From a virus: a DNA stretch of 19,310 nt. The position numbers were made by a program, and so were the translations under genes. The DNA lies in the UHGV virus genome UHGV-0366180, one strand, 5' to 3'. Positions 5,158-17,564 of this stretch are shown here, in pieces. A model generated the notes under the pieces. That model worked only from the letters and a program-made list of their open reading frames with translations, made no database searches and had not been told where the DNA came from. Positions within the stretch are counted from its first letter, which is position 1, and every line of letters begins with the position of its first letter.

Positions 5158-5473
5158 GGTATTTCTCCAAGTTTCTTTTTAGATATAACCAACCATAGTC
5201 AGTCCTTTCTACACCCATAAAGAGTGGAGCCATCACAACTTTACCGAAAGTATTCCTGTGTTGGCAGATTTCAAAGGAATATTCTTTCTCAATGTCAATC
5301 CCGTATTTGTACAGGACTGCTTTTAAAACTTGTTCATTATCCAGAAGTGTATCTGGAGTCTCACCATACTTTTCAAGTAACGGGTCATTCATAAACACCG
5401 TCATAGAAATATTGTAGTTTGAGAAGTGGCTCTTCTGAGCCACACCCTCTTTATTAATGTTCTGTGAATCCAT
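5150..5473 (-). CDS. Hypothetical protein (107 aa)
   Basis: ATG at 5473..5471 with AAGGGG 9 nt upstream; the ORF-track start at 5482 is TTG lying directly against the SD. Confidence 0.45.
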   Translation of the reverse strand: MDSQNINKEGVAQKSHFSNYNISMTVFMNDPLLEKYGETPDTLLDNEQVLKAVLYKYGIDIEKEYSFEICQHRNTFGKVVMAPLFMGVERTDYGWLYLKRNLEKYRV

Positions 5474-6209
5474 TATAACCAACCCCTTTTAACCAGCACT
5501 TCAGGTTATTAGCATCATAATTCAGTTTCGGGTATGAGGTTACATGGAACTGCTCACCATCATAGTAGACAATATCTGCAATCCATAGTCCATTCTCTTT
5601 ACAGAAGTCTTTATCTGCTTTAGAGGTAATTGGATTAACTTCTACAAAACCATCTACACCCAAATCCTTTAAGCTACCTACAATACCTTTGCAGATAACG
5701 CATGTCTCAGATACTACCACAAAAAGTTCTTGGCTTTCAAGCTCTACAATGTATTCACCAAGCTGTACTTTAGGGAGATTTGATTGCTTCATAATCTTCC
5801 CATCGGCTGCACGGACAATCGCATACCACTCTTTACCATCAACCACTGACATTCGAATAATACACTCTTGACCAGTACGCTTTTCAATGTCTGCAAGACG
5901 TTTTAAAGCTTCTTCATAGTCATCTGTGTACTTCAGGTCATTATTATGGCAAACAGCTTCCATAGCACCGTTGTGGTCATGTTGTGACAGGTAAATCAAA
6001 CCGTCAAGAACATATTGCAAATCTGCCTGAGCATCCAATGTCTCAATGGGGTCTTTCTCTTCAATTGCTTTTACAAGCTCTTTTGCTTCTTCAAGCATAC
6101 ACAGAGATTGAGATTTTAAAGATTCCCAATACTCATTACTGTAAGGTTGCTTTTGAGTGTTTCCACAACGAAGGTTCCAGTTTTTTACTGATTCTCTTGA
6201 GTTAAACAT
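5454..6209 (-). CDS. Two-domain protein: N-terminal MazG-like all-alpha NTP pyrophosphohydrolase domain (tentative) plus uncharacterised C-terminal domain (251 aa)
   Basis: Acidic helix pattern LEEAKELVKAIEEKDPIETLDAQADLQYVLDG resembles the MazG/HisE EExxE...ExxD metal-binding signature. The C-terminal ~125 aa carries CxxC (SETCVICKG) and no motif I can name. ATG 6209..6207 with SD AAGGAG. Confidence 0.5.
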   Translation of the reverse strand: MFNSRESVKNWNLRCGNTQKQPYSNEYWESLKSQSLCMLEEAKELVKAIEEKDPIETLDAQADLQYVLDGLIYLSQHDHNGAMEAVCHNNDLKYTDDYEEALKRLADIEKRTGQECIIRMSVVDGKEWYAIVRAADGKIMKQSNLPKVQLGEYIVELESQELFVVVSETCVICKGIVGSLKDLGVDGFVEVNPITSKADKDFCKENGLWIADIVYYDGEQFHVTSYPKLNYDANNLKCWLKGVGYNGFTEH

Positions 6210-8491: not shown

Positions 8492-8518
8492 AAAGCCCCA
8501 TACTAAGTACAGGGCTTT
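8492..8518 (-). terminator. Strong intrinsic terminator downstream of the SSB gene
   Basis: Minus RNA AAAGCCCUGUAC-UUA-GUAUGGGGCUUU followed by UUC: 12-bp stem including two G.U pairs, 3-nt loop, U5 run. Confidence 0.6.
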
Positions 8519-8535
8519 AAAGTAACTTTTAGAGA

Positions 8536-9393
8536 TTAGTCTTCTGTATCGAAGTCTTCATCTTCTTCGTCATCTGGGTCTGGCAAGTCTTCATCGTCAC
8601 CATCATCAGAATCATTCGAAGATTTATGGTCTGTTGCGTCTTCTTCAGTGATTTCACCGTTATCTTCGACACCATCAAGACCAAGCATAGCCAGTTCATC
8701 TTCATCCAGTTCAGGTTCACCGTTAGCACCGTTACCACCAGTGTAAGGTACAAGAGTATCAATGATAAACTGTTCCTGAATAGGCTTTGTCAAGACATTG
8801 TTCTCAAAAGTGTAGAAGTGAGTAGAAAGAATCACACTACCAAAAGAACCGTTACCAACTGCAATATCTGGATGAATTACATCATAGTTCTTATCATCTT
8901 CATGTTTGTCAGATGCTTGAGCTTTGATTTTCTTCATCGGCTGCTTAACAGCTACACGCTTACCATTTACTTCTTCAATCAGCATTACAGGGAATGACTG
9001 TTTAGCTGTCCATACAGCACCATCTTTATAAGCTGCTGCACGACTTACTTTCAAGATGTAGTAAGTGTCTGCTTCAAATGGTGGTTTGCAACCAAACTTC
9101 TCTTCGAAGTCATCTGCATCAACTGCTTCAGTGGTAACTTTATCCCAACCTTCTGGGTTTTTCTTAGACTTAGTAAACTCTTTAAACAGCTTGTTACCAT
9201 CTTCTGCCAGAATTGAAACGCTGTAGTTACAGTCTTTGCCTGGGAATTTCTTATCAATGGACTTGCCTTTTCCCGGACGTGGTGAAGTGTTCAGGTAATA
9301 AAACCAGACATCTTTCAGCAGGTAACGCAAAGTTTGACGCTCAGTACCATTGTACTTCTCTACCGGAGCTTTCATTTTAACAACTTTAGACAT
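8536..9393 (-). CDS. Single-stranded DNA-binding protein with acidic C-terminal tail (T7 gp2.5-like), 285 aa
   Basis: The final ~45 residues are almost entirely Asp/Glu and end ...DEEDEDFDTED, the hallmark of phage SSB tails. Position in a T7-type replisome cluster, with its own promoter and terminator. The OB-fold itself was not verifiable by eye. Confidence 0.6.
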   Translation of the reverse strand: MSKVVKMKAPVEKYNGTERQTLRYLLKDVWFYYLNTSPRPGKGKSIDKKFPGKDCNYSVSILAEDGNKLFKEFTKSKKNPEGWDKVTTEAVDADDFEEKFGCKPPFEADTYYILKVSRAAAYKDGAVWTAKQSFPVMLIEEVNGKRVAVKQPMKKIKAQASDKHEDDKNYDVIHPDIAVGNGSFGSVILSTHFYTFENNVLTKPIQEQFIIDTLVPYTGGNGANGEPELDEDELAMLGLDGVEDNGEITEEDATDHKSSNDSDDGDDEDLPDPDDEEDEDFDTED

Positions 9394-9465: not shown

Positions 9466-9615
9466 TTACTGGAAGTTGTGCTTATCTTTAGAAGCTGCTT
9501 TACGTGCAGTTTTTCCAGTTCTTACACGCTTCTCTTCATAGTATTTTGCTGGTTTACCAGCAGTGGCTTTTAAGGAATCCCCAAAAACTTTTTCAAATGC
9601 TTTAGAGTGTTTCAT
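9466..9615 (-). CDS. Small basic protein (49 aa), absent from the ORF track because it is under 60 aa
   Basis: ATG 9615..9613 with SD GGAG 7 nt upstream, ATGA-coupled to the upstream ORF; hand translation MKHSKAFEKVFGDSLKATAGKPAKYYEEKRVRTGKTARKAASKDKHNFQ, stop TAA 9468..9466. Confidence 0.35.
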   Translation of the reverse strand: MKHSKAFEKVFGDSLKATAGKPAKYYEEKRVRTGKTARKAASKDKHNFQ

Positions 9616-9893
9616 GATATTCTCCGATATACTTGATATTCAAACACATTTTCTTTAATTATAAAGAGCCAACCAATATTATGTTTAGGTATAGTAATGG
9701 TGACTGTGATTATGCTGTGATGGAACTTTTCTTCTGCCTCAACGCCTCCATCACATTTCATGTAGAGCATTCTATAGAACCTATCAACCTTTGTCAAACA
9801 CTCTTCCTGAAATTCATTTAAACTTTTTTCTTCAAAGAATGGTATGAACCCCTCTCTTTTATAACTGTCACTCAGTTTCAAACGGGCAGTCAT
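9612..9893 (-). CDS. Hypothetical protein (93 aa)
   Basis: ATG at 9893..9891 has GAGG 6 nt upstream; the ORF-track GTG at 9905 and the first ATG at 9899 lie too close to that SD. Overlaps the primase-helicase 3' end by 26 nt. Confidence 0.4.
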   Translation of the reverse strand: MTARLKLSDSYKREGFIPFFEEKSLNEFQEECLTKVDRFYRMLYMKCDGGVEAEEKFHHSIITVTITIPKHNIGWLFIIKENVFEYQVYRRIS

Positions 9894-11853
9894 CTGCATC
9901 CTCACTTAATACAGGTGGAATCGTTGAGCTTTGACGCTGTTCTTCAGTATAGACTTCACCAGTCTCACGGTCAAATACTTCATCCTCATAATGAGGTAAA
10001 GAGTCGTCATAATGGTCTTCATCTTCACCAATACCAAACTGTTGACGAATATTTTCTGCTGCACCATCAATGTCAACACCACATCCAGAAGCTTTGATGA
10101 GACGTCCTGTATCTGGATTGTACCAAGTATGACCAGCAATACCTGTTGACTTACCATGACGACGACACTTAGTTAACTTGATTTTTGTCAAGTTTTTCTT
10201 AACAGGGTCTGGGTCAACCTTGTTACGCATTAACAGAATGTTGTTCATAGAAATCTGGAAGTATGCACCAGAACCCTTAATATCCTCTTCAGAGATATCT
10301 CCACCTTCAGAGTTAGCTTTCTGACCACCTGCACTCTTACGAACGTGACATACGTTTACCTGCGCATACTGGTAGCGTTTGCAACGACGCAATAGCTCAG
10401 ACAAAACTTCTTCTTCATCCGTATCAGAACGTGACAGGGCTAACGTGATAGGGTCAAGAATGATAATCTTACAGTCTAAACTGTTAACAAGATAGTCAAC
10501 AAACTCTAGCAGGTTATCTTGGTCAATTGCCCCTTGATGGTCAACGATATGGATACGACGGCCTTTAGATAGTTCTGCGTGTGCTCCTTTTAATTCATCC
10601 CAATCCCGTTCATCATAAGGAATCTCAGAAATCTGCTTGCTCAGGTGGATTGCACAGAGCATCTCCATCAACTCTTCATAGGTATCTTCTACAGGAATTA
10701 CACCGATATTATAATCAGTTTCTTTCCAAGCTGAGTAAATCATCTCACGAGTGTAAGCTGACTTACCTACTGAAGATGGTGCTGCAATAGTTGTAATCTC
10801 ACCTAAACCGTAACCACCATAAGTCAGCCTGTTCAAATCTCCGAAAGATTCTGGGAAAGGAATCAATGGAATCTGACCACGATTCTTCATTGCCTCAAAA
10901 CCATCTGCGAAGTTCTTGATACCAGCAGGGCAGTAACGTGGTGCATTGTAGATACGCTGCTTAAATCCTTCCAGAACTGTATCTTTTTCTTTATAGAACT
11001 TTGTCCACCATTCGTTAAGGTCTTTTACACCTTCTGGATACTGGAATAAACGAACCTTCTCAATAGGTAGGATACCAGCAGCCTCTTTAGTGGCTTTAGC
11101 ACCTGCTTCATCGTTATCAAAGCACAAGTAAATCTCATCAAATGATGTAATGTACTGATAGTTATCCTTGATAGACTTGATGTTTGCACCTGATGGAACA
11201 GATACGTGACAGTAATTCTTACGACGAGATTTGTCCTTAATCGCAAGAGAAGTCATATAGATTGCTGTCGCACATTCCATCTCACCTTCCCAGATGAATA
11301 GACGGTTACCACCTTCTGGAGCAATCCATGAACCGAACATTGCCAGTTCACCTTTAATGTCTCCAACACCACCAGAAAAGTCTTTTAACTTACCTCGTAG
11401 GTGCTCTTTTGGGTGGTCTTCTGGGTAACGGTGACGAACACGGTATCCAACATGCTCTAGCTTGCCATCTTCATTGCGTTTGTAAGTTGGGTAGAAATGC
11501 GCGTCAATTTCACCATCACTGTCAATGTCAACCTTGATACCCAAACGCTCAAGAACTTTTGCAGGGATTTTCCTGTCTTTCAAGTCCATTGCTTCAAGGT
11601 TTTCTTTCACATCGTCTAAATCCATTCCACGGAAAGTACGGTTTTTATTGTCTGAACCAGTAGAATAAGTGCTCACGATTTGTCCTTTATCAAAATCCCA
11701 CTCTGGGAAACCTTTGTTACAGCTAAAGCAAGTCATCGAATAAGAATCATCGTCATGATGATAGATTGAACCAGCATCTGATGAACCACAACGTGGACAT
11801 GCACAATGACCAATAAACTGACCAGCCTCTTTCAATTTACGACCTTTAGACAT
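9868..11853 (-). CDS. Bifunctional DNA primase-helicase (T7 gp4-type), 661 aa
   Basis: N-terminal Cys4 zinc ribbon (CPRCGSSD...CFSCNK); TOPRIM motifs (IWEGEMECATA, CFDNDEAG); Walker A GxxxxGKS (IAAPSSVGKSAYT) and Walker B-like KIIILDPITL. ATG 11853..11851 with SD AGAGGTG; the ORF-track start at 11859 is GTG. Confidence 0.85.
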   Translation of the reverse strand: MSKGRKLKEAGQFIGHCACPRCGSSDAGSIYHHDDDSYSMTCFSCNKGFPEWDFDKGQIVSTYSTGSDNKNRTFRGMDLDDVKENLEAMDLKDRKIPAKVLERLGIKVDIDSDGEIDAHFYPTYKRNEDGKLEHVGYRVRHRYPEDHPKEHLRGKLKDFSGGVGDIKGELAMFGSWIAPEGGNRLFIWEGEMECATAIYMTSLAIKDKSRRKNYCHVSVPSGANIKSIKDNYQYITSFDEIYLCFDNDEAGAKATKEAAGILPIEKVRLFQYPEGVKDLNEWWTKFYKEKDTVLEGFKQRIYNAPRYCPAGIKNFADGFEAMKNRGQIPLIPFPESFGDLNRLTYGGYGLGEITTIAAPSSVGKSAYTREMIYSAWKETDYNIGVIPVEDTYEELMEMLCAIHLSKQISEIPYDERDWDELKGAHAELSKGRRIHIVDHQGAIDQDNLLEFVDYLVNSLDCKIIILDPITLALSRSDTDEEEVLSELLRRCKRYQYAQVNVCHVRKSAGGQKANSEGGDISEEDIKGSGAYFQISMNNILLMRNKVDPDPVKKNLTKIKLTKCRRHGKSTGIAGHTWYNPDTGRLIKASGCGVDIDGAAENIRQQFGIGEDEDHYDDSLPHYEDEVFDRETGEVYTEEQRQSSTIPPVLSEDADDCPFETE

Positions 11854-12040
11854 TAGCACCTCTTCGTTGTAGTTCTGCTTTTAATCCATTTTCAATCTTG
11901 TCCAGCTCATGAATTTCATCTGCAATCTCTTTCCTTCGTGATTCAACTCTCTTAAGACGTTCAATCATTACCTCATTGGAAAGAGATGAGAGTTCCACTA
12001 AACGGTGGTCAATAACTTTAAAATTGTCTTTTACTCTCAT
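11846..12040 (-). CDS. Hypothetical small coiled-coil protein (64 aa)
   Basis: ATG 12040..12038 with GAGAGG 6 nt upstream; overlaps the primase-helicase start by 8 nt. Confidence 0.4.
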   Translation of the reverse strand: MRVKDNFKVIDHRLVELSSLSNEVMIERLKRVESRRKEIADEIHELDKIENGLKAELQRRGANV

Positions 12041-12054
12041 CTTCATCCTCTCTT

Positions 12055-12798
12055 TTAAACTTTAATGATGGCTCTTAGCTTGTTCTCAAGGTCTGCAAGA
12101 GTACCATTATTATGAATAATGTCACGCTCATATTTTGTAGAAATCCCATTTTCTGAAACATGTGATGAAACTTTGTCCACATTGTCTCTTTTTACTTCAA
12201 TAGTTTGGTGTGCAAATCTACTCAGCCATTCAGCTTCAGAGTCAAATCTTAAATCACTGATTAAGACAAAACCATATTGGTTTCTAAGTGAGCACATTTC
12301 ATGGAATCTAACCATTCTTTTTTCAAGGTCTTTAGACCAGAACTTGTCGCCCATTACTTTACGGACAACTTCAGTACCCCAAACCTGTTGAATTTGTCTT
12401 GATGAGAATTTATACTTTTTACTAAACCCCAGACGTGTCAATAGAGTCGGTTTAGCAACCTTCTTAAGCTCCATGATTAATCGTCCAGTTAACTCTGACA
12501 TAAGCTTGAAGTCCATATGGTAACGTTCATCTCTGAAGGTGAACTCCATAGCTTCCGTAACTTTAAACATCAGTTCAGAGTATGATAAGTCAAAAACCTG
12601 TGGAGTCTCTTTAGTTTCACCGTACAGGTCATTCCAAGTCAAGTCAAATATCTTTGATGCAGATAGTTTAAGGTTGTCTGCAAAGGCCATTACAGCAACA
12701 TTGTAGCCATACTCATCCTCTAAGATGTTCTTCACAATAGAACATGAGGTGTCTTTTCCAGAACGTGCCTTTCCAGTAAATGCAATAATATTACTCAT
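12055..12798 (-). CDS. Deoxynucleoside monophosphate kinase (T4 gp1-like), 247 aa
   Basis: P-loop IIAFTGKARSGKDT closely matches the T4 dNMP kinase P-loop as I recall it (FLSGVKRSGKDT); ATG 12798..12796 with SD AAGGGAGA. Confidence 0.65.
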   Translation of the reverse strand: MSNIIAFTGKARSGKDTSCSIVKNILEDEYGYNVAVMAFADNLKLSASKIFDLTWNDLYGETKETPQVFDLSYSELMFKVTEAMEFTFRDERYHMDFKLMSELTGRLIMELKKVAKPTLLTRLGFSKKYKFSSRQIQQVWGTEVVRKVMGDKFWSKDLEKRMVRFHEMCSLRNQYGFVLISDLRFDSEAEWLSRFAHQTIEVKRDNVDKVSSHVSENGISTKYERDIIHNNGTLADLENKLRAIIKV

Positions 12799-12815
12799 TT
12801 TATCTCCCTTAATTA

Positions 12816-12842
12816 CTAAAAAGCCCCCAACTAAGGAGGCTT
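12816..12842 (-). terminator. Intrinsic terminator between the acidic protein gene and dNMP kinase
   Basis: Minus RNA AAGCCUCC-UUAGUU-GGGGGCUU followed by UUUAG: 8-bp stem with one G.U pair, 6-nt loop, U5 run. Confidence 0.5.
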
Positions 12843-12859
12843 GTAAGATTTATAAAGAC

Positions 12860-13660
12860 TTAGTGCAGTTGGTCAGCAGACTCTTTTTCAGCCATAGCTG
12901 AGATTTGCTTTACAAAATCATCACCGAAGTTAATGCGTAGCTTCTCTTCAATGATTGAAGCACCAATATTCACCAAAACATCATTGATTGCTTGCATACT
13001 AACGCCACCAGTCATTTCCTCAATGAACTCAATACTCACACCCATCATCTGTGACAGTTGGATTAGTGCAACGATATTCATCATCGTAGAGATAGCTGGA
13101 ATCATCAGTGCAACTTTCACCTGAAGTGGTTCAATGTCAGCTACAGAGTCATTTTCAACAGCTTCTTCCAAAGACTCTTTAGTTTGCTGGATAATCTCCT
13201 TGATTCGTGGGTTTAGCTCTTCTACACCCCAATCAAGTTTTTCATATCGTGACAACTTCTCTTCCATTCGCTTCTCAAGAGCAGCCATAACAGCACTGGT
13301 TGATGAAATTAACAGGTCAATTAGCTCATCATTACCTGCGAGTAGTAGCAAGTCTTTTTCTTCAGTGGTCATGGCAATATAGTCATTTTTCTGCATCTCA
13401 TAAAAAATGAACTCTGCAAGAGCATCAACACCTACAACGATAGATGCTAAAGCAAGTGTTTTGTCGCAAAGCATCATGTTGACCTGTTCTGCAAAAGCAC
13501 TGTTATCAGACTTGTCTTCAGGCAAGTTATAGCTTGCAGGCATAAACTGTTCTGTGTAGTTATTACCACGAAGAATCATAGCCATGCTTTCTACGGCATT
13601 GATTAAGAATGCTTCATCAACACCTTTTTCTTCAAGCATCTTTTCTACATCGATATTCAT
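12860..13660 (-). CDS. Hypothetical strongly acidic protein (266 aa)
   Basis: Asp/Glu-rich throughout with predicted helical character; no motif I recognise; start ATG 13660..13658 lies 1 nt after the upstream stop. Confidence 0.5.
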   Translation of the reverse strand: MNIDVEKMLEEKGVDEAFLINAVESMAMILRGNNYTEQFMPASYNLPEDKSDNSAFAEQVNMMLCDKTLALASIVVGVDALAEFIFYEMQKNDYIAMTTEEKDLLLLAGNDELIDLLISSTSAVMAALEKRMEEKLSRYEKLDWGVEELNPRIKEIIQQTKESLEEAVENDSVADIEPLQVKVALMIPAISTMMNIVALIQLSQMMGVSIEFIEEMTGGVSMQAINDVLVNIGASIIEEKLRINFGDDFVKQISAMAEKESADQLH

Positions 13661-13661
13661 A

Positions 13662-14084
13662 TTATTTCTCTCTCAGTTGGTTAAGTTTCTTTCTAGAACA
13701 TTTTAAGTTTTCGGATGAAGAAAAGTCAAGTGTCTTTTCAGAACGTGGATAATAGTGCCTATCCCAAGAAGTTTCAACATCGTTAATCAGTGACGCTAGA
13801 TTACACAGGTCTGTACCACTTTGCAACCTCTTTTTAAGAGAATCTAGTAAAGCAACTGTGTCTTTAGCTTTACGTCTTGCTGTAGCAACATCTTTCATAT
13901 GCTCAAATACAGAGCATTTTAAGTCATCTTCATAGTTTTCAGACAACTCTATTTCATGTTGTATATCAACCATTCTCCTGTGATGGTGAGCATATTCCCG
14001 TTGAGCAGCAATGTCAAGTTCTTCCAACTTCTGCAAAGCTCTAACAAAGTCAGCTATGTCTGGGTGAACAAACATTTTCTGCAT
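13662..14084 (-). CDS. Hypothetical protein (140 aa), first gene of the minus-strand train
   Basis: ATG 14084..14082 with SD GAGG 6 nt upstream; faces the divergent intergenic region. Confidence 0.5.
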   Translation of the reverse strand: MQKMFVHPDIADFVRALQKLEELDIAAQREYAHHHRRMVDIQHEIELSENYEDDLKCSVFEHMKDVATARRKAKDTVALLDSLKKRLQSGTDLCNLASLINDVETSWDRHYYPRSEKTLDFSSSENLKCSRKKLNQLREK

Positions 14085-14341
14085 GTAAGCCTCTTTTAAG
14101 TAACTATTAAGTTTTAATCTTTTATCTTAACGTATTCTATACGTTATACTTTAAAGCTTTTTAAAAGCTATTAAATAATCTTTTAAGAGTTTTAAAGTAT
14201 CTGTATAGTTAAACTGTTAAGTAACCTTTTAAGTAAAAACCCACTTCGCAAAGATTAACACCTTGTCAAGCGCATTGTCAACTTGCTTTTTATAATTTTT
14301 TGCAGTAATGTATGAGGTTAATGATTTTAGAGGGAGTAAAA
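14085..14341. promoter_or_regulatory. Divergent AT-rich control region between the minus-strand train and the polymerase gene, with repeated motifs
   Basis: About 257 bp non-coding. TTAAGTAA at 14096-14103, 14217-14224 and 14229-14236; tandem TTGTCA at 14263-14268 and 14275-14280; TATAAT at 14291-14296; SD AGGGAG at 14331-14336. Confidence 0.45.
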
Positions 14342-17041
14342 ATGGAAAACGTAGATTTTAAAAACTTACATTTAGTTGGTGATACAGAAACTGATGGTTT
14401 ACTCCTTGAGTTCACTAAAGTGCACGTAATGGCTTTCGCAGACTATAAATCTGACGATGAAGAGCCACCTGTATGGGTCTTTACAGATGAGCCTATCCTC
14501 GGTCACAAGTACACTAAGTACATCAAGGGTGGCTTACGTGAAGGTATTGAGTTTGCGTTAAAGGCAAAACGTCTTTGCATTCATAATGGTCTAGGTTATG
14601 ACTGGTGGGTTTTCAATCACATTGCACCGGATTTATGGAACTTTGATAACCCAAAGTGTAAGCCGTGGAGTAATTTCTTTCAGGATTCTCTTATCCAGTC
14701 TCGTGTTCAGTGGATGGATAGACCAACTCCAAAGGGTTATAAAGGTGCTCATGGTTTGGCTGCATGGGGTGCTCGTGTTGGTGTTCGTAAGCCAGAGATT
14801 GAGCATTGGGGTGTGTGGAATGCAGAAATCTTCACTCGTGTTGTAGAAGATATCCGTATTAACGCCAAAACTAAACGGGCACTTGATAATGAGTATCTCA
14901 AGCTTAAGAAGTGTGGCATCGACACTTATGAAACCTACATGCGAGCTAAAGAAACATCTTTCTGGATGAGTCAACAAGCTATCAATGGTTGGAAAGCTGA
15001 TAAAGAGCTTATGGAGTTCCATGTAAAGGAACTTGACAAGTTGACTAATGAACTTGCTTCAGAAGTTGAACCGCATCTACCTCCAACTATTAAGACCAAA
15101 GGTAAAGTCACTGGAGAAGAGTTTGCAAAAGCTTGGAATGAGTATGTTGAAGCATTTGGTCATGCAGATGGACTGAAGAGAATCACCAAGTACCCTAAGA
15201 CAAAGTATCGTCAGCAGGTACGTAATGGTGAGATGCAAACATATGAAATCAAGCCATTTGGTAAGCCAACTACAAAGATTTTTAACATTGAAAAAAGGAA
15301 TTGCTATACACCAACCAACACTGTAACTGGTGAAGAGTACAAGGAAGGCTTTGTAGCAATGAAGGATGCTCGTGCAATTTGCAATGAGTTGAACGCAAAG
15401 ATTGGTAAGAAATGCAAAGACTGGAAGCCAGTAAAAACAGTCAAAACTGTGAAGTACTATAACAGCCACGTTGTTAACCACTTTGAACTTGAGTCAAGTC
15501 GCTACACAGGTTTGATTGATGCACCATATACACCAATTGAGTTTGAAGTTTCTCGTATGACTCAGGTAGCAGTTGTTAAAGACTACTTGAAATCAGTTGG
15601 TTGGATTCCAGATGACTGGAACTACAAGAAAGACTCTGATGGTCGCCCTGTCAAAGTTTGTCGTTTCAAAGACAATAAAAAGATGATTACAAAGCATCCT
15701 AAGTGGCAGGAAATGGTTGAGCGGTGTGGTTTGAGTTATGTTGAACACGAAGGCGTCCAGTACATTGAGCATAACTGGTCTGTGAAGAAGTACACAGATT
15801 TGCTTGAGCCTTGCTTAATCCGTACTTCACCAAAACTTACTGAATCATCTTACGATACGATTGAAGGTGAGCTTGGACAGAAGATTGCTAAATACTACAC
15901 TTTGATGCACCGACGCAGAACTATTGAGAACTCAAAGGATGATGAAAAAGGTTGGTTGAACCAGATTCGTCCTGATGGTCGCCTTAGTGCTGGTGCAATG
16001 GTGTTTGGTACTTCAACTGGACGTATGACACAGTATGGTATTGTAAACGTACCGTCTGGTGCTGCTGTCTATGGGGAACCAATGAGGGCAGTGTGGATTT
16101 GTGAGGAAGGTACTAACGTTGTCTCTGTAGACATGAACTCAGCCCAGCTAGTTCTTCTTTGTAACTTTATGGGTGATAAAGACTTCACCAAAGCGGTAAC
16201 GCAAGGTAAAGAAGAAATTGAGTTCATTCGTCAAGAAGATGGACGCTATTACTGTAAACACTTTGATGAGTACCTCAACCCAGAGATTGATAAGTACCTT
16301 CGCTATGACTCTGAGAATGACCTGTACGTTGTCTATTCAGGGACTGATGCACATACACTGAACAGTATTTACTTTAACTTGAACGATGAGCAGGACATCT
16401 TGACTTGTCGAGCTACTCAGGATGAGAATCTTCTTCATGAGATTAGCAAGGGTCGTAAGAAAGCTAAGAATGGTATCTATGCACTGCTGTTCGGTGCAGG
16501 TGATGAGAAGTTTGCTAAGACGATTAAAGCTGCAACTACTCAGGAAGGTGCGCTGACTAAACAGACTTACTTTATTCGTTTGCCTAAAATTAAAAAGCTG
16601 CTAGATGACTTGGAAGCTGACTACAAAGCAACTAAAAAGGCACTTGAAGAGGTGTTTGGTAAGACTGCTGCAATTTCTAAAGGGGGCTTTGTAAAGGTTG
16701 CTGGAGCTTGGTTGTGGTGTAAATCTCCACATAAGTTATTGAATTATTTGCTCATGGGTTCGGAAAGTCAGATTCAAAATGAGGCAATTAACCTTGCTTG
16801 TAGAAGAGTATGTGAAGAAGGATTGACAAAATTAAATGGACGAAAACCAGCAATCGGTGCTAGGCTTTTGCTGGCATACCACGATGAAAACAGTTGGGAA
16901 TGCCCAGAAAGTATGACTCAAGAAGTTAAAGCCATAACTGACTGGATGTATGGTCAGGCATCTAAGAATTTAGGTTTGAAGAGTGAGACGCTTGTAACTG
17001 GCACAGGTAAGGTTGGTAAGAGCTGGTATGAGGTACATTGA
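14342..17041 (+). CDS. DNA polymerase, family A (T7 gp5-like) with 3'-5' exonuclease domain, 899 aa
   Basis: Exo I VGDTETDGL; Exo II HNGLGYDWWVF (compare T7 HNGHKYD); pre-motif-A TSTGRMTQYGIVNVPS; motif A SVDMNSAQLVLL; motif B RKKAKNGIYALLFGAG; motif C YHDE. Start moved from the ORF-track 14312 to ATG 14342, which has SD AGGGAG 5 nt upstream. Confidence 0.9.
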   Translation: MENVDFKNLHLVGDTETDGLLLEFTKVHVMAFADYKSDDEEPPVWVFTDEPILGHKYTKYIKGGLREGIEFALKAKRLCIHNGLGYDWWVFNHIAPDLWNFDNPKCKPWSNFFQDSLIQSRVQWMDRPTPKGYKGAHGLAAWGARVGVRKPEIEHWGVWNAEIFTRVVEDIRINAKTKRALDNEYLKLKKCGIDTYETYMRAKETSFWMSQQAINGWKADKELMEFHVKELDKLTNELASEVEPHLPPTIKTKGKVTGEEFAKAWNEYVEAFGHADGLKRITKYPKTKYRQQVRNGEMQTYEIKPFGKPTTKIFNIEKRNCYTPTNTVTGEEYKEGFVAMKDARAICNELNAKIGKKCKDWKPVKTVKTVKYYNSHVVNHFELESSRYTGLIDAPYTPIEFEVSRMTQVAVVKDYLKSVGWIPDDWNYKKDSDGRPVKVCRFKDNKKMITKHPKWQEMVERCGLSYVEHEGVQYIEHNWSVKKYTDLLEPCLIRTSPKLTESSYDTIEGELGQKIAKYYTLMHRRRTIENSKDDEKGWLNQIRPDGRLSAGAMVFGTSTGRMTQYGIVNVPSGAAVYGEPMRAVWICEEGTNVVSVDMNSAQLVLLCNFMGDKDFTKAVTQGKEEIEFIRQEDGRYYCKHFDEYLNPEIDKYLRYDSENDLYVVYSGTDAHTLNSIYFNLNDEQDILTCRATQDENLLHEISKGRKKAKNGIYALLFGAGDEKFAKTIKAATTQEGALTKQTYFIRLPKIKKLLDDLEADYKATKKALEEVFGKTAAISKGGFVKVAGAWLWCKSPHKLLNYLLMGSESQIQNEAINLACRRVCEEGLTKLNGRKPAIGARLLLAYHDENSWECPESMTQEVKAITDWMYGQASKNLGLKSETLVTGTGKVGKSWYEVH

Positions 17042-17051
17042 TGGTGTTGAA

Positions 17052-17564
17052 ATGATTACAGAAATTCGTCTTAAGGAGCTATTGGACTATGACCCCGAAA
17101 CAGGGGTCTTTACTTGGAAGTTTAGAGAAGGTAATGCAAACTTTAACTCTAGATTTGGAGGTAAGAGGGCTGGAAACTACAGAACAAATACTGATGGACA
17201 CAAGTCAGTTCAGTTGTTGATTGATGGAAGGAGTTACCAAGCAAATCGTTTAGTTATCTTGTATATGGATGGATATCTGCCTGATAAAACCTTACAGGTT
17301 GACCATCAGAATGGGGACGGTTGGGACAATAGGTACTTGAATTTAAGGGTTTGTACAGCTTCACAAAACTCTTGCAATCGGTCAAGAAAGTCTCCATCTG
17401 GGTTGCCAAAAGGTGTACAGAAGATAAGTAAAAGGTTTCGAGCAATGATACGTTTACAAGGTAAAAACTATCATCTTGGTATGTTTGACACACCTGAAGA
17501 AGCCCATAAAGCTTACTGTGAAGCTGCTATTAAACTCCACGGAGAGTTTGCAAAACTAAGTTGA
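17052..17564 (+). CDS. HNH endonuclease with C-terminal AP2-type domain (copy B)
   Basis: HNH motif VDHQNGDGWDNRYLNLRVCTASQN; AP2-like GVQKISKRFRAMIRLQGKNYHLGMFDTPEEAHKAY; shares the YDPETGVFTW block with copy A. An alternative start at ATG 17028 is possible. Confidence 0.75.
   Translation: MITEIRLKELLDYDPETGVFTWKFREGNANFNSRFGGKRAGNYRTNTDGHKSVQLLIDGRSYQANRLVILYMDGYLPDKTLQVDHQNGDGWDNRYLNLRVCTASQNSCNRSRKSPSGLPKGVQKISKRFRAMIRLQGKNYHLGMFDTPEEAHKAYCEAAIKLHGEFAKLS

Follow-up and report, generated by a model that had tools for sequence, protein, structure and literature searches.

The two open reading frames (ORFs) described here were shown to be the conserved leading genes of the Felix O1-like leftward replication operon. 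The second encodes a strongly acidic protein of 266 aa, which is probably neither an anti-restriction mimic of the Ocr/ArdA type nor a tail protein; we tentatively read it as an abundant early or middle protein-binding factor that may act in host takeover or replication licensing. The stretch of DNA analyzed, hereafter the window, is the 19,310-nucleotide viral sequence UHGV-0366180, and it is a Felixounavirus sequence, i.e., that of a Felix O1-like myophage. Both ORFs were found on the minus strand where an earlier note on this DNA had placed them. One, of 140 aa, lies at 13662 to 14084 and is the orthologue of Felix O1 ORF97, SUSP1 agp047 and Bas63 gp48. The other, of 266 aa, lies at 12860 to 13660 and is the orthologue of Felix O1 ORF98 (Felix01p181), SUSP1 agp048 and Bas63 gp49. 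As that note had claimed, they are the first genes read leftward from a divergent control region, on the other side of which a family-A DNA polymerase gene (14312 to 17041, plus strand) is read rightward. A single base separates the stop codon of the 140-aa gene from the ATG of the 266-aa gene (TAA-T-ATG). The proposed position at the head of the replication module also held: the pair is followed by a terminator and then by genes for a dNMP kinase, a 66-aa protein, a T7 gp4-like primase-helicase, a putative SSB and an exonuclease. Acidic C-terminal tails are present on two of these products, the primase-helicase and the SSB-like protein. Judged from sequence comparisons, both ORFs are real genes, since full-length homologues are present in phage records (about 260 for the 266-aa protein) and the 266-aa gene is under purifying selection within the genus, with a dN/dS of 0.04 to 0.12.

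The control region, which includes the 5' leader, occupies the 227 AT-rich bp from 14085 to 14311, between the polymerase gene and the 140-aa gene, and the GC skew changes sign there. Its minus strand carries twin TTGACA hexamers (14281 to 14276 and 14269 to 14264) and a candidate extended -10 element, TGtTAATCT, at 14260 to 14252. The twin-TTGACA element is a putative promoter; a simple consensus promoter scan did not call it. The region also contains three copies of CTTTTAAGTAA, the palindromic motifs CTTTAAAG and GCTTTTTAAAAGC, and three of the four matches to CTTTTAAG in the window. Felix O1 has a nearly identical region, conservation is also strong in SUSP1 and Mordin, and distant relatives retain a TCTTTAAAG motif. 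An Rfam search of the window returned no match. At the other end of the pair, the terminator that had been proposed behind the 266-aa gene was recovered as an intrinsic-terminator-like hairpin with a U-run at about 12816 to 12842 on the minus strand, in the gap that separates the 266-aa gene from that for the dNMP kinase. The hairpin, AAGCCUCC-UUAGUU-GGGGGCUU, has an energy of -16.8 kcal/mol (z = -2.2). A terminator at the equivalent site is annotated in ASO1A and Mordin and was found in L005, a distant metagenomic relative. Given that the 266-aa gene is promoter-proximal and is followed by a conserved terminator, synthesis of its product probably falls in the early or middle period and exceeds that of the downstream enzymes. 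RT-PCR of Felix O1 placed ORF97 and ORF98 in one expression class with ORF96, ORF99 and ORF101; this timing is coarse, and many structural genes fall in the same class.

The strong acidity noticed earlier in the 266-aa protein was borne out by its computed pI of 4.19, the lowest among the 25 main ORFs of the window, and its net charge of -29. Asp and Glu make up 18.4% of the residues, a fraction exceeded in three other ORFs of the window, and Lys and Arg 7.5%; the scarcity of basic residues contributes as much to the acidity as the abundance of acidic ones. A helical protein had also been expected, and AlphaFold2 gave an all-helical model with 13 helices (pLDDT 89, pTM 0.88). The predicted protein is thus a compact, globular, all-helical bundle, in which two uniformly hydrophobic helices stand out from the amphipathic, acidic ones. 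The first, core helix 1 (aa 67 to 89; 13394 to 13462, minus strand), reaches a 19-residue Kyte-Doolittle mean of 1.94, with a hydrophobic moment of 0.10. The second, core helix 2 (aa 178 to 206; 13043 to 13129, minus strand), has a hydrophobic moment of 0.03, and its hydrophobic maximum is found at the same position in all lineages. The last block of the model, a C-terminal tail of aa 257 to 266 (12863 to 12892, minus strand), was of low confidence (pLDDT 55). The family nevertheless ends there in a nearly invariant hydrophobic-His sequence (..QLH, QIH, TIH, TLH or VLH), in which H266 is itself nearly invariant.

The two hydrophobic helices raise the question of whether the protein is membrane associated, for example as a replication anchor or in superinfection exclusion, with the helices as spans. 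Both segments exceed the Kyte-Doolittle threshold of 1.6 (1.94 and 1.84) and show almost no amphipathicity, and the GRAVY of the protein, +0.04, is unusually high for the window. Nevertheless, we regard this as very improbable. Core helix 1 contains D79 and E83 and is therefore more likely to be buried than to cross a membrane, and the E, K or H residues found within core helix 2 of homologues argue against a conserved span; in one homologue, the uncharged run is only about 12 residues long. Flanking sequence on either side of the segments is highly acidic and gives no positive-inside signal, and the confident, compact model is compatible with a soluble protein. The membrane-protein reading was provisionally rejected on account of the charged residues within the segments; the lack of amphipathicity suggests instead that both helices are buried in the model.

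The absence of recognizable motifs reported earlier for both proteins stood for Pfam, NCBIfam, PADLOC and PDB sequences, where sequence and profile searches gave nothing significant; it did not stand for PHROG, in which both belong to catalogued families. The 266-aa protein matched phrog_4251, the Felix O1 gp98 family, with an E value of 7.7e-144 (residues 2 to 265 against positions 1 to 264 of a profile of 266). When its model was compared with PDB structures, no fold match was obtained, and a search of BFVD returned only members of its own family (a Moogle homologue, TM 0.94). The BFVD model of this homologue independently reproduces the all-alpha fold. The 266-aa protein therefore appears, on the predicted model, to be an orphan fold, unlike any solved structure. 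Family and structure searches assigned it no conventional enzymatic fold and no enzymatic or DNA-binding family. It was also considered as a T7 gp2.5-type SSB or replisome component, and the all-alpha model came with no family or structure match of this kind; a sigma-factor, anti-sigma or OB-fold SSB identity was ruled out by the fold. When 1.84 billion cluster representatives were searched exhaustively with HMMER, only 9 matches were obtained, all of them phage relatives, and no match came from IMG/VR when it was scanned with the most distant three homologues as queries. To the extent of these sequence searches, the family is confined to the Ounavirinae.

Identity to the 266-aa protein is 91.7% in Felix O1, 98% in Bas63 and 43.6% in SUSP1, and the position, length, fold and charge are alike in all of these. 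The three proteins are direct orthologues with no difference in kind. In a CRISPRi-ART screen in E. coli DH10B, SUSP1 agp048 was scored as Fit (score 1.58, p 0.029, 7 guides; PMC11879866), which showed that the orthologue is needed for normal growth of SUSP1 in this restriction-less host. The phenotype was moderate, as the p value of 0.029 indicates, and effects on neighboring genes may contribute to it. At 43.6% identity, agp048 may also behave differently from the protein of the window.

Both phrog_4251 and RefSeq label the family "minor tail protein." The orthologue is absent from the mass spectrometry (MS) list of Felix O1 virion proteins (PMC3185647), from the 22 virion proteins of VpaE1 (PMC4690856) and from the MS/cryo-EM list of Sf14 virion parts (PMC11821841), and the Felix O1 genome paper does not mention a "minor tail" protein. 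This identity was rejected on the basis of the three virion inventories, the location of the gene in the replication module and the lack of a fold match to tail components. A wider role in morphogenesis, as a scaffolding protein or assembly chaperone as well as a minor tail protein, would agree with the label and with the Fit score, which structural genes also receive. Scaffolds and chaperones are likewise acidic helical proteins that evolve fast, are essential and are missing from mature virions; T7 gp9 and P22 gp8, with about 200 to 300 residues, resemble the 266-aa protein in size as well. Moreover, the Felix O1 structural genes gp23 and gp36 likewise lie outside the main morphogenesis block. 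However, scaffolds are elongated proteins with only partial order, and their genes adjoin those for the capsid and protease, whereas the 266-aa gene lies between those for the DNA polymerase and the dNMP kinase, in an operon whose promoter region also serves the polymerase, and the model of its product is a compact globular bundle without a fold match to tail or scaffold proteins. Together with its absence from the virion inventories, these differences make a morphogenetic role improbable. Among the matches listed, most related phage records have copied the "minor tail protein" label, which should go; through it, functional-genomics summaries counted the gene of this family as structural.

Comparison across lineages showed that the family keeps its position, size, fold and acidity. 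The position of the gene in the replication module is invariant in every lineage, down to 22% identity, and acidity is likewise kept in every lineage (pI 4.2 to 4.8, net charge -14 to -29); 25 of the 49 acidic positions are still acidic in at least four of six lineages. Across the same six lineages, only 10 residues are invariant. The amino-acid identity of the 266-aa protein to SUSP1 and Mordin is 44 and 38%, respectively, against 94 and 92% for the polymerase, 96 and 92% for the primase-helicase, and 95 and 88% for the SSB-like protein. The dN is 0.49 to 0.57, against 0.02 to 0.06 for its replication neighbors, so that the gene evolves about 10 times faster than those of the adjoining polymerase and primase-helicase and is the fastest-evolving sizeable gene in an otherwise very conserved module. 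Divergence from Felix O1 is concentrated in a hypervariable patch of about aa 74 to 123, mainly 90 to 120 (13292 to 13441, minus strand), where nucleotide identity is 72%, compared with 92 to 100% in the flanks; the protein alignment of the family varies in the same columns. At the corresponding position, Erwinia phage M7 and Pectobacterium phage Wc4-1 encode proteins of 284 and 273 aa, respectively, similar in size and acidity, and that of Wc4-1 also has a terminal His (..VQH). Given the hhalign probabilities of 0.04 to 0.27 and a weak co-linear match with hmmsearch, the homology of these two proteins to the family is unproven.

These rates also bear on whether the protein is an accessory subunit or assembly factor of the T7-like replisome, its acidic surface and tail docking on basic patches. 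Such a factor might couple the polymerase to the primase-helicase and SSB, or help to initiate replication in the neighboring AT-rich region with its many repeats. The invariant position within the replication module speaks for this, as do the Fit score that the SUSP1 orthologue shares with the polymerase, the SSB-like protein and the exonuclease, and the adjacent leader with its iteron-like repeats and change in GC skew. The acidic tails of the neighboring SSB-like protein and primase-helicase point the same way; in T7, acidic tails mediate replisome contacts. On the other hand, the would-be partners are 88 to 96% identical between the same genera in which the 266-aa gene has a dN about 10 times theirs, the six lineages have only 10 invariant residues in common, and a net charge of -29 makes direct binding to origin DNA unlikely. 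To our knowledge, T7-type replisomes require no such subunit. We consider a place in the replisome possible but rather unlikely.

The earlier note had suggested a DNA mimic or anti-defense protein of the Ocr or ArdA kind. T7 Ocr (gp0.3) and ArdA are early, acidic, largely helical, non-enzymatic proteins of phages or plasmids that bind stoichiometrically, and the 266-aa protein is likewise acidic, helical and early. Its fast divergence with conserved charge and its within-genus hypervariable patch are typical of arms-race genes. T4 dmd encodes an antitoxin to the RnlA toxin of K-12. Since dmd was scored as Fit in the same CRISPRi-ART study (PMC11879866), an anti-defense gene can receive this score in a K-12 background. 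Against the suggestion, no Pfam match to the Ocr, ArdA or Gam families and no PADLOC match was obtained, and comparison with DNA-mimic folds revealed no similarity of the model to Ocr, ArdA or any other mimic. Per residue, the protein carries a charge of about -0.11, and its relatives carry -0.05 to -0.09. The value for Ocr is about -0.24, so that the 266-aa protein has about half the charge density of classical mimics; it is also more than twice as large as Ocr and has a hydrophobic two-helix core. DH10B lacks EcoKI, and it has been described as being without type IV restriction systems present in other hosts. The need for the SUSP1 orthologue in this strain (PMC11879866) argues against a function in anti-restriction; Ocr is dispensable in such hosts according to T7 data. 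Bas63 was reported to be very sensitive to restriction systems despite carrying a 98% identical copy of the protein. Its named defense counters are g77, g79, g80, g84, g85 and g130, and gp49 is not included (PMC11482910). Thus, the specific Ocr/ArdA-type reading is not supported, and a dedicated anti-defense protein of any kind, which would matter only in a host with the matching defense, seems quite unlikely.

A broader role in host takeover or as an acidic decoy fits the promoter-proximal position of the gene and its fast evolution with conserved charge. From the conserved negative charge, the few basic residues, the flexible hydrophobic-His tail, the fast divergence and the hypervariable patch, we infer that the protein would work stoichiometrically through protein-protein binding. 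It may be an acidic decoy or adaptor that captures a basic protein with affinity for nucleic acids, most likely one of the host's nucleoid or DNA-metabolism proteins, and this capture would let phage DNA replication proceed, as with the small acidic takeover proteins of T7. Like the 266-aa gene, those for T7 gp2 (an RNA polymerase inhibitor), gp5.5 (an H-NS binder) and gp5.9 (a RecBCD inhibitor) are found among replication genes, and their products, as well as T4 Arn, are acidic and bind a host nucleic-acid-binding protein. Some T7 takeover proteins, e.g., gp2, are essential in ordinary hosts. All of these proteins differ from the 266-aa protein in having about 50 to 100 residues and unrelated folds, and the resemblance would be a functional analogy only. 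The model is structurally unlike any known decoy or DNA mimic, and its two uniformly hydrophobic helices could instead mean membrane association. Core proteins are nearly identical among E. coli, Salmonella, Shigella and Citrobacter hosts, so that adaptation to a conserved target alone does not explain the fast divergence. It is conceivable, although on balance somewhat doubtful, that the protein is the first member of a structurally novel class of phage factors for takeover or replication licensing, one indispensable to all Ounavirinae. If so, it would be abundant, acidic and all-alpha, built around two hydrophobic core helices and ending in a conserved hydrophobic-His docking tail, and it would neutralize or repurpose a host DNA-metabolism or nucleoid protein; the hypervariable patch would then be the mark of a continuing conflict with some variable factor of the host or of a prophage. 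Felix O1-like phages serve as workhorses in both diagnostics and therapy. The gene pair is a good entry point to their host takeover and expression timing, because transcription from the control region, which also serves the polymerase gene, reaches it first and because the larger protein combines a fitness phenotype, an orphan fold and the fastest evolution in the module.

The 140-aa protein is far better conserved than its neighbor. It is highly charged, with a pI of 6.65, and matches phrog_4039, the Felix O1 gp97 family, over its full length (E value, 2.9e-83; 1 to 140 of 140). No significant profile match to Gam-like nuclease inhibitor families was found. The SUSP1 orthologue, agp047, was scored as Not Fit in the CRISPRi-ART screen (PMC11879866), and a homologue was not found at the equivalent position in L005; the protein therefore looks dispensable. 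Rather than being an obligate partner of the 266-aa protein, it is probably an accessory or regulatory factor in its own right. Homologues with 44 to 76% identity are present in every Ounavirinae genus examined, including Erwinia phage M7 and Pectobacterium phage Wc4-1, and hhalign links the protein to its Kolesnikvirus and Wc4-1 homologues with E values of 6e-41 and 3e-43, respectively. AlphaFold2 predicted a long helical hairpin (helices 8 to 50 and 53 to 88) and two short helices (pLDDT 71). The invariant columns of the alignment define a motif, H35-RRMVD-x-QHEIELSE-x-Y51 (13932 to 13982, minus strand), which in this model falls on the last part of helix 1 and the hairpin tip.

The two ORFs at the head of the leftward operon encoded a 140-aa protein (13662-14084, -) and an acidic 266-aa protein (12860-13660, -). 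As the earlier note had proposed, they were the first genes leftward of an AT-rich region of 227 bp, and the gene for a family-A DNA polymerase (14312-17041, +) came first rightward. A single base separated the stop codon of the 140-aa gene from the ATG of the 266-aa gene (TAA-T-ATG). The neighbors included an HNH endonuclease; a dNMP kinase, a T7 gp4-like primase-helicase and an exonuclease were encoded on the minus strand. The surrounding 1.7 kb was 96-98.5% identical to many Felixounavirus genomes, among them Salmonella phage Meda and E. coli phages ULIM9, ASO1A and Bas63/JohannRWettstein; the sequences were thus public before, at 99.6% identity in Meda. The 140-aa and 266-aa ORFs were orthologous to ORF97 and ORF98 of Felix O1, agp047 and agp048 of SUSP1, and gp48 and gp49 of Bas63, respectively. 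The expected terminator, a hairpin with a U-run, was found 3' of the 266-aa gene; it was annotated at the equivalent place in ASO1A and Mordin and was found also in a relative whose protein is only 22% identical. The promoter-adjacent position and the conserved terminator before the downstream enzymes suggest that the 266-aa gene is expressed more highly than they are. In a coarse RT-PCR dataset from Felix O1, ORF97 and ORF98 fell into one expression class with ORF96, ORF99 and ORF101.

The 266-aa protein had been described as strongly acidic and Asp/Glu-rich. Its pI of 4.19 was the lowest among the 25 main ORFs of the window and its net charge was -29, but its D+E content (18.4%) was only moderately high and its K+R content (7.5%) unusually low, so that the scarcity of basic residues counts as much as acidic richness. 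The GRAVY value was +0.04, with 7% Met. The predicted helical character was borne out by a confident AlphaFold2 model from an 11-sequence alignment (all-helical, 13 helices, pLDDT 89, pTM 0.88), on which an independent BFVD model of the Moogle homologue (38% identical) superposed with a TM score of 0.94. Two long helices (aa 67-89 and 178-206) were uniformly hydrophobic (hydrophobic moments, 0.10 and 0.03), the remaining eleven were amphipathic and mostly acidic, and confidence was low in the last ten residues, which terminate in a conserved hydrophobic-His. The hydrophobic segments contain charged residues, both here and in homologues, which speaks against conserved membrane spans. A membrane-associated protein is considered very improbable. 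The modelled fold is an orphan; the families had been catalogued already and a fitness phenotype published for one orthologue.

We next considered the DNA-mimic reading. In line with the lack of recognisable motifs noted before, the 266-aa protein gave no match in Pfam (Ocr, ArdA and Gam families included), NCBIfam or PADLOC, or in sequence and profile searches against the PDB. Its charge per residue was -0.11 (-0.05 to -0.09 in relatives), roughly half that of Ocr. When SUSP1 was screened genome-wide by CRISPRi-ART in E. coli DH10B, 19 genes were 'Fit', and these included agp048 (score, 1.58; p, 0.029; 7 guides), the polymerase, agp054 and the exonuclease (PMC11879866). The defence counters named by PhageMaP for Bas63 were g77, g79, g80, g84, g85 and g130, and did not include g48 or g49. 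The negative searches, the charge density, the DH10B fitness and the PhageMaP data thus leave a classical Ocr- or ArdA-like anti-restriction mimic unsupported. A dedicated anti-defence protein is unlikely. A broader takeover or decoy role is the reading that we favor, tentatively: the 266-aa protein may be a stoichiometric protein-binding factor, an acidic decoy or adaptor that would engage a basic, nucleic-acid-binding partner while the host is taken over or replication is licensed. It would be an early acidic non-enzymatic phage accessory protein, a kind already known.

RefSeq Felix O1, PHROG 4251 and most of the related phage records listed give the 266-aa protein the name 'minor tail protein'. 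No evidence for this identity was found. The Felix O1 genome paper nowhere uses the words 'minor tail', and the protein is not among the Felix O1 virion proteins (PMC3185647), the 22 virion proteins of VpaE1 (PMC4690856) or the Sf14 parts list from cryo-EM and MS (PMC11821841). Its model had no structural similarity to any tail protein. A morphogenesis role as scaffold, chaperone or tail component is considered improbable. In the CRISPRi-ART paper the annotation carries the flag 'Ambiguous', but the gene was tallied among the tail proteins all the same (PMC11879866); the unsupported label led to its being classed as structural in a functional-genomics paper.

A word-indexed search recovered 266-aa relatives only among Felixounavirus proteins (at least 81% identity). 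When 1.84 billion cluster representatives were searched exhaustively with HMMER, 9 hits were obtained: those in Suspvirus and Mooglevirus had 43% identity, and three metagenomic relatives had 29, 25 and 22%. The order was constant in every lineage: divergent polymerase, control region, 140-aa gene where present, 266-aa gene, terminator, dNMP kinase, small ORF, primase-helicase, 285-aa gene and exonuclease. Amino acid identities to the SUSP1 and Mordin orthologues, respectively, were 94 and 92% for the polymerase (dN, 0.04-0.06), 96 and 92% for the primase-helicase (dN, 0.02-0.05), 95 and 88% for the SSB-like 285-aa protein, 76 and 62% for the 140-aa protein (dN, 0.15-0.26), and 44 and 38% for the 266-aa protein (dN, 0.49-0.57). 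Within the genus, the 266-aa gene was under purifying selection (dN/dS, 0.04-0.12); compared with Felix O1, it contained a 150-nt island at 72% identity (about aa 74-123) in surroundings of 92-100%. All lineages kept the protein's charge and length, its pattern of helices and the places of the two hydrophobic ones; only 10 residues were invariant across six lineages. This fast divergence with retained features suggests that overall shape and charge outweigh exact sequence, or a role in conflict. The pattern is not that expected of a tightly co-evolving subunit of the replisome. A true replisome or initiation accessory is a possible but less likely alternative to the decoy or adaptor.

The 140-aa protein was modelled as a highly charged helical hairpin (pLDDT 71), the end of which carries the invariant motif H-RRMVD-x-QHEIELSE-x-Y. 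It was conserved much better than its 266-aa neighbor and was clearly present in Kolesnikvirus (Erwinia phage M7) and Pectobacterium phage Wc4-1 (44-47% identity; hhalign E 1e-41 to 1e-43). Despite this conservation, agp047 was scored 'Not Fit' in SUSP1 (PMC11879866), a screen that has false negatives, since the primase-helicase was likewise 'Not Fit'. In an 87-kb metagenomic relative, L005, no 140-aa ORF lay at the equivalent position between the leader and a 277-aa homologue, and tblastn found none in the 16.8 kb searched. The 140-aa protein is probably a factor in its own right, regulatory or accessory, and it may act on the repeat-rich leader directly upstream. In M7 and Wc4-1, the slot of the 266-aa gene was filled by acidic proteins of 284 and 273 residues (pI 4.48 and 4.81), for which homology to the 266-aa family was not demonstrable; the Wc4-1 protein terminates in ..VQH, resembling the nearly invariant C-terminal His of the family. 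M7 also has an extra acidic 204-aa ORF, gp062 (5214-5828 of its sequence, -), which separates the 140-aa homologue from the positional analogue of 284 aa, so the operon head accepts insertions.

Between genera, the control region (14085-14311) was better conserved than the coding sequence of the 266-aa protein. It contained twin TTGACA hexamers spaced by 6 nt, CTTTTAAGTAA in three copies, the palindromic motifs CTTTAAAG and GCTTTTTAAAAGC and the palindrome AACGTAT-AGA-ATACGTT; the TCTTTAAAG motif was retained in L005, M7 and another distant relative, L009. The region, where the GC skew switches sign, might serve as an operator array or as an origin of replication. The remaining CTTTAAAG and CTTTTAAG matches, outside this region at 8515-8522 and 9567-9574, were intergenic and flanked the SSB-like gene. 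Motif counts were small (3 observed versus 0.7 expected, and 4 versus 1.7). The motif may flag several regulatory sites across the replication module.

The SSB-like 'hypothetical' protein of 285 aa (8536-9393, -; phrog_3877; pI 4.48, net charge -27) had no match among PDB sequences. Its C terminus is an acidic tail that includes an aromatic residue (..DSDDGDDEDLPDPDDEEDEDFDTED) and resembles that of the T7 gp2.5 SSB, and its SUSP1 orthologue, agp054, was strongly 'Fit' (2.8, p 3e-7) (PMC11879866). It is probably these phages' unannotated single-stranded DNA-binding protein. The primase-helicase (9868-11859, -) likewise ends, as does T7 gp4, in an acidic tail with Phe (..SEDADDCPFETE), which fits a replisome built as in T7, with acidic tails holding it together.

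An HNH/AP2 homing endonuclease ORF (17013-17564, +) overlapped the 3' end of the polymerase gene, the least conserved stretch relative to Felix O1 (16142-17041). In VSe102, REP5, REP8 and Si3, the polymerase match was split in two with an endonuclease in between, so homing endonucleases or introns appear to use the gene as a polymorphic insertion target. Over 9868-17041, gene-scale mosaicism relative to Felix O1 was seen within the genus: dS was 0.41 for the polymerase, 0.02 for the 140-aa gene, 0.42 for the 266-aa gene, 0.05 for the dNMP kinase and 0.27 for the primase-helicase, and identity dropped abruptly at 13292-13441 and 16142-17041. This unevenness points to frequent recombination with gene-sized patches.
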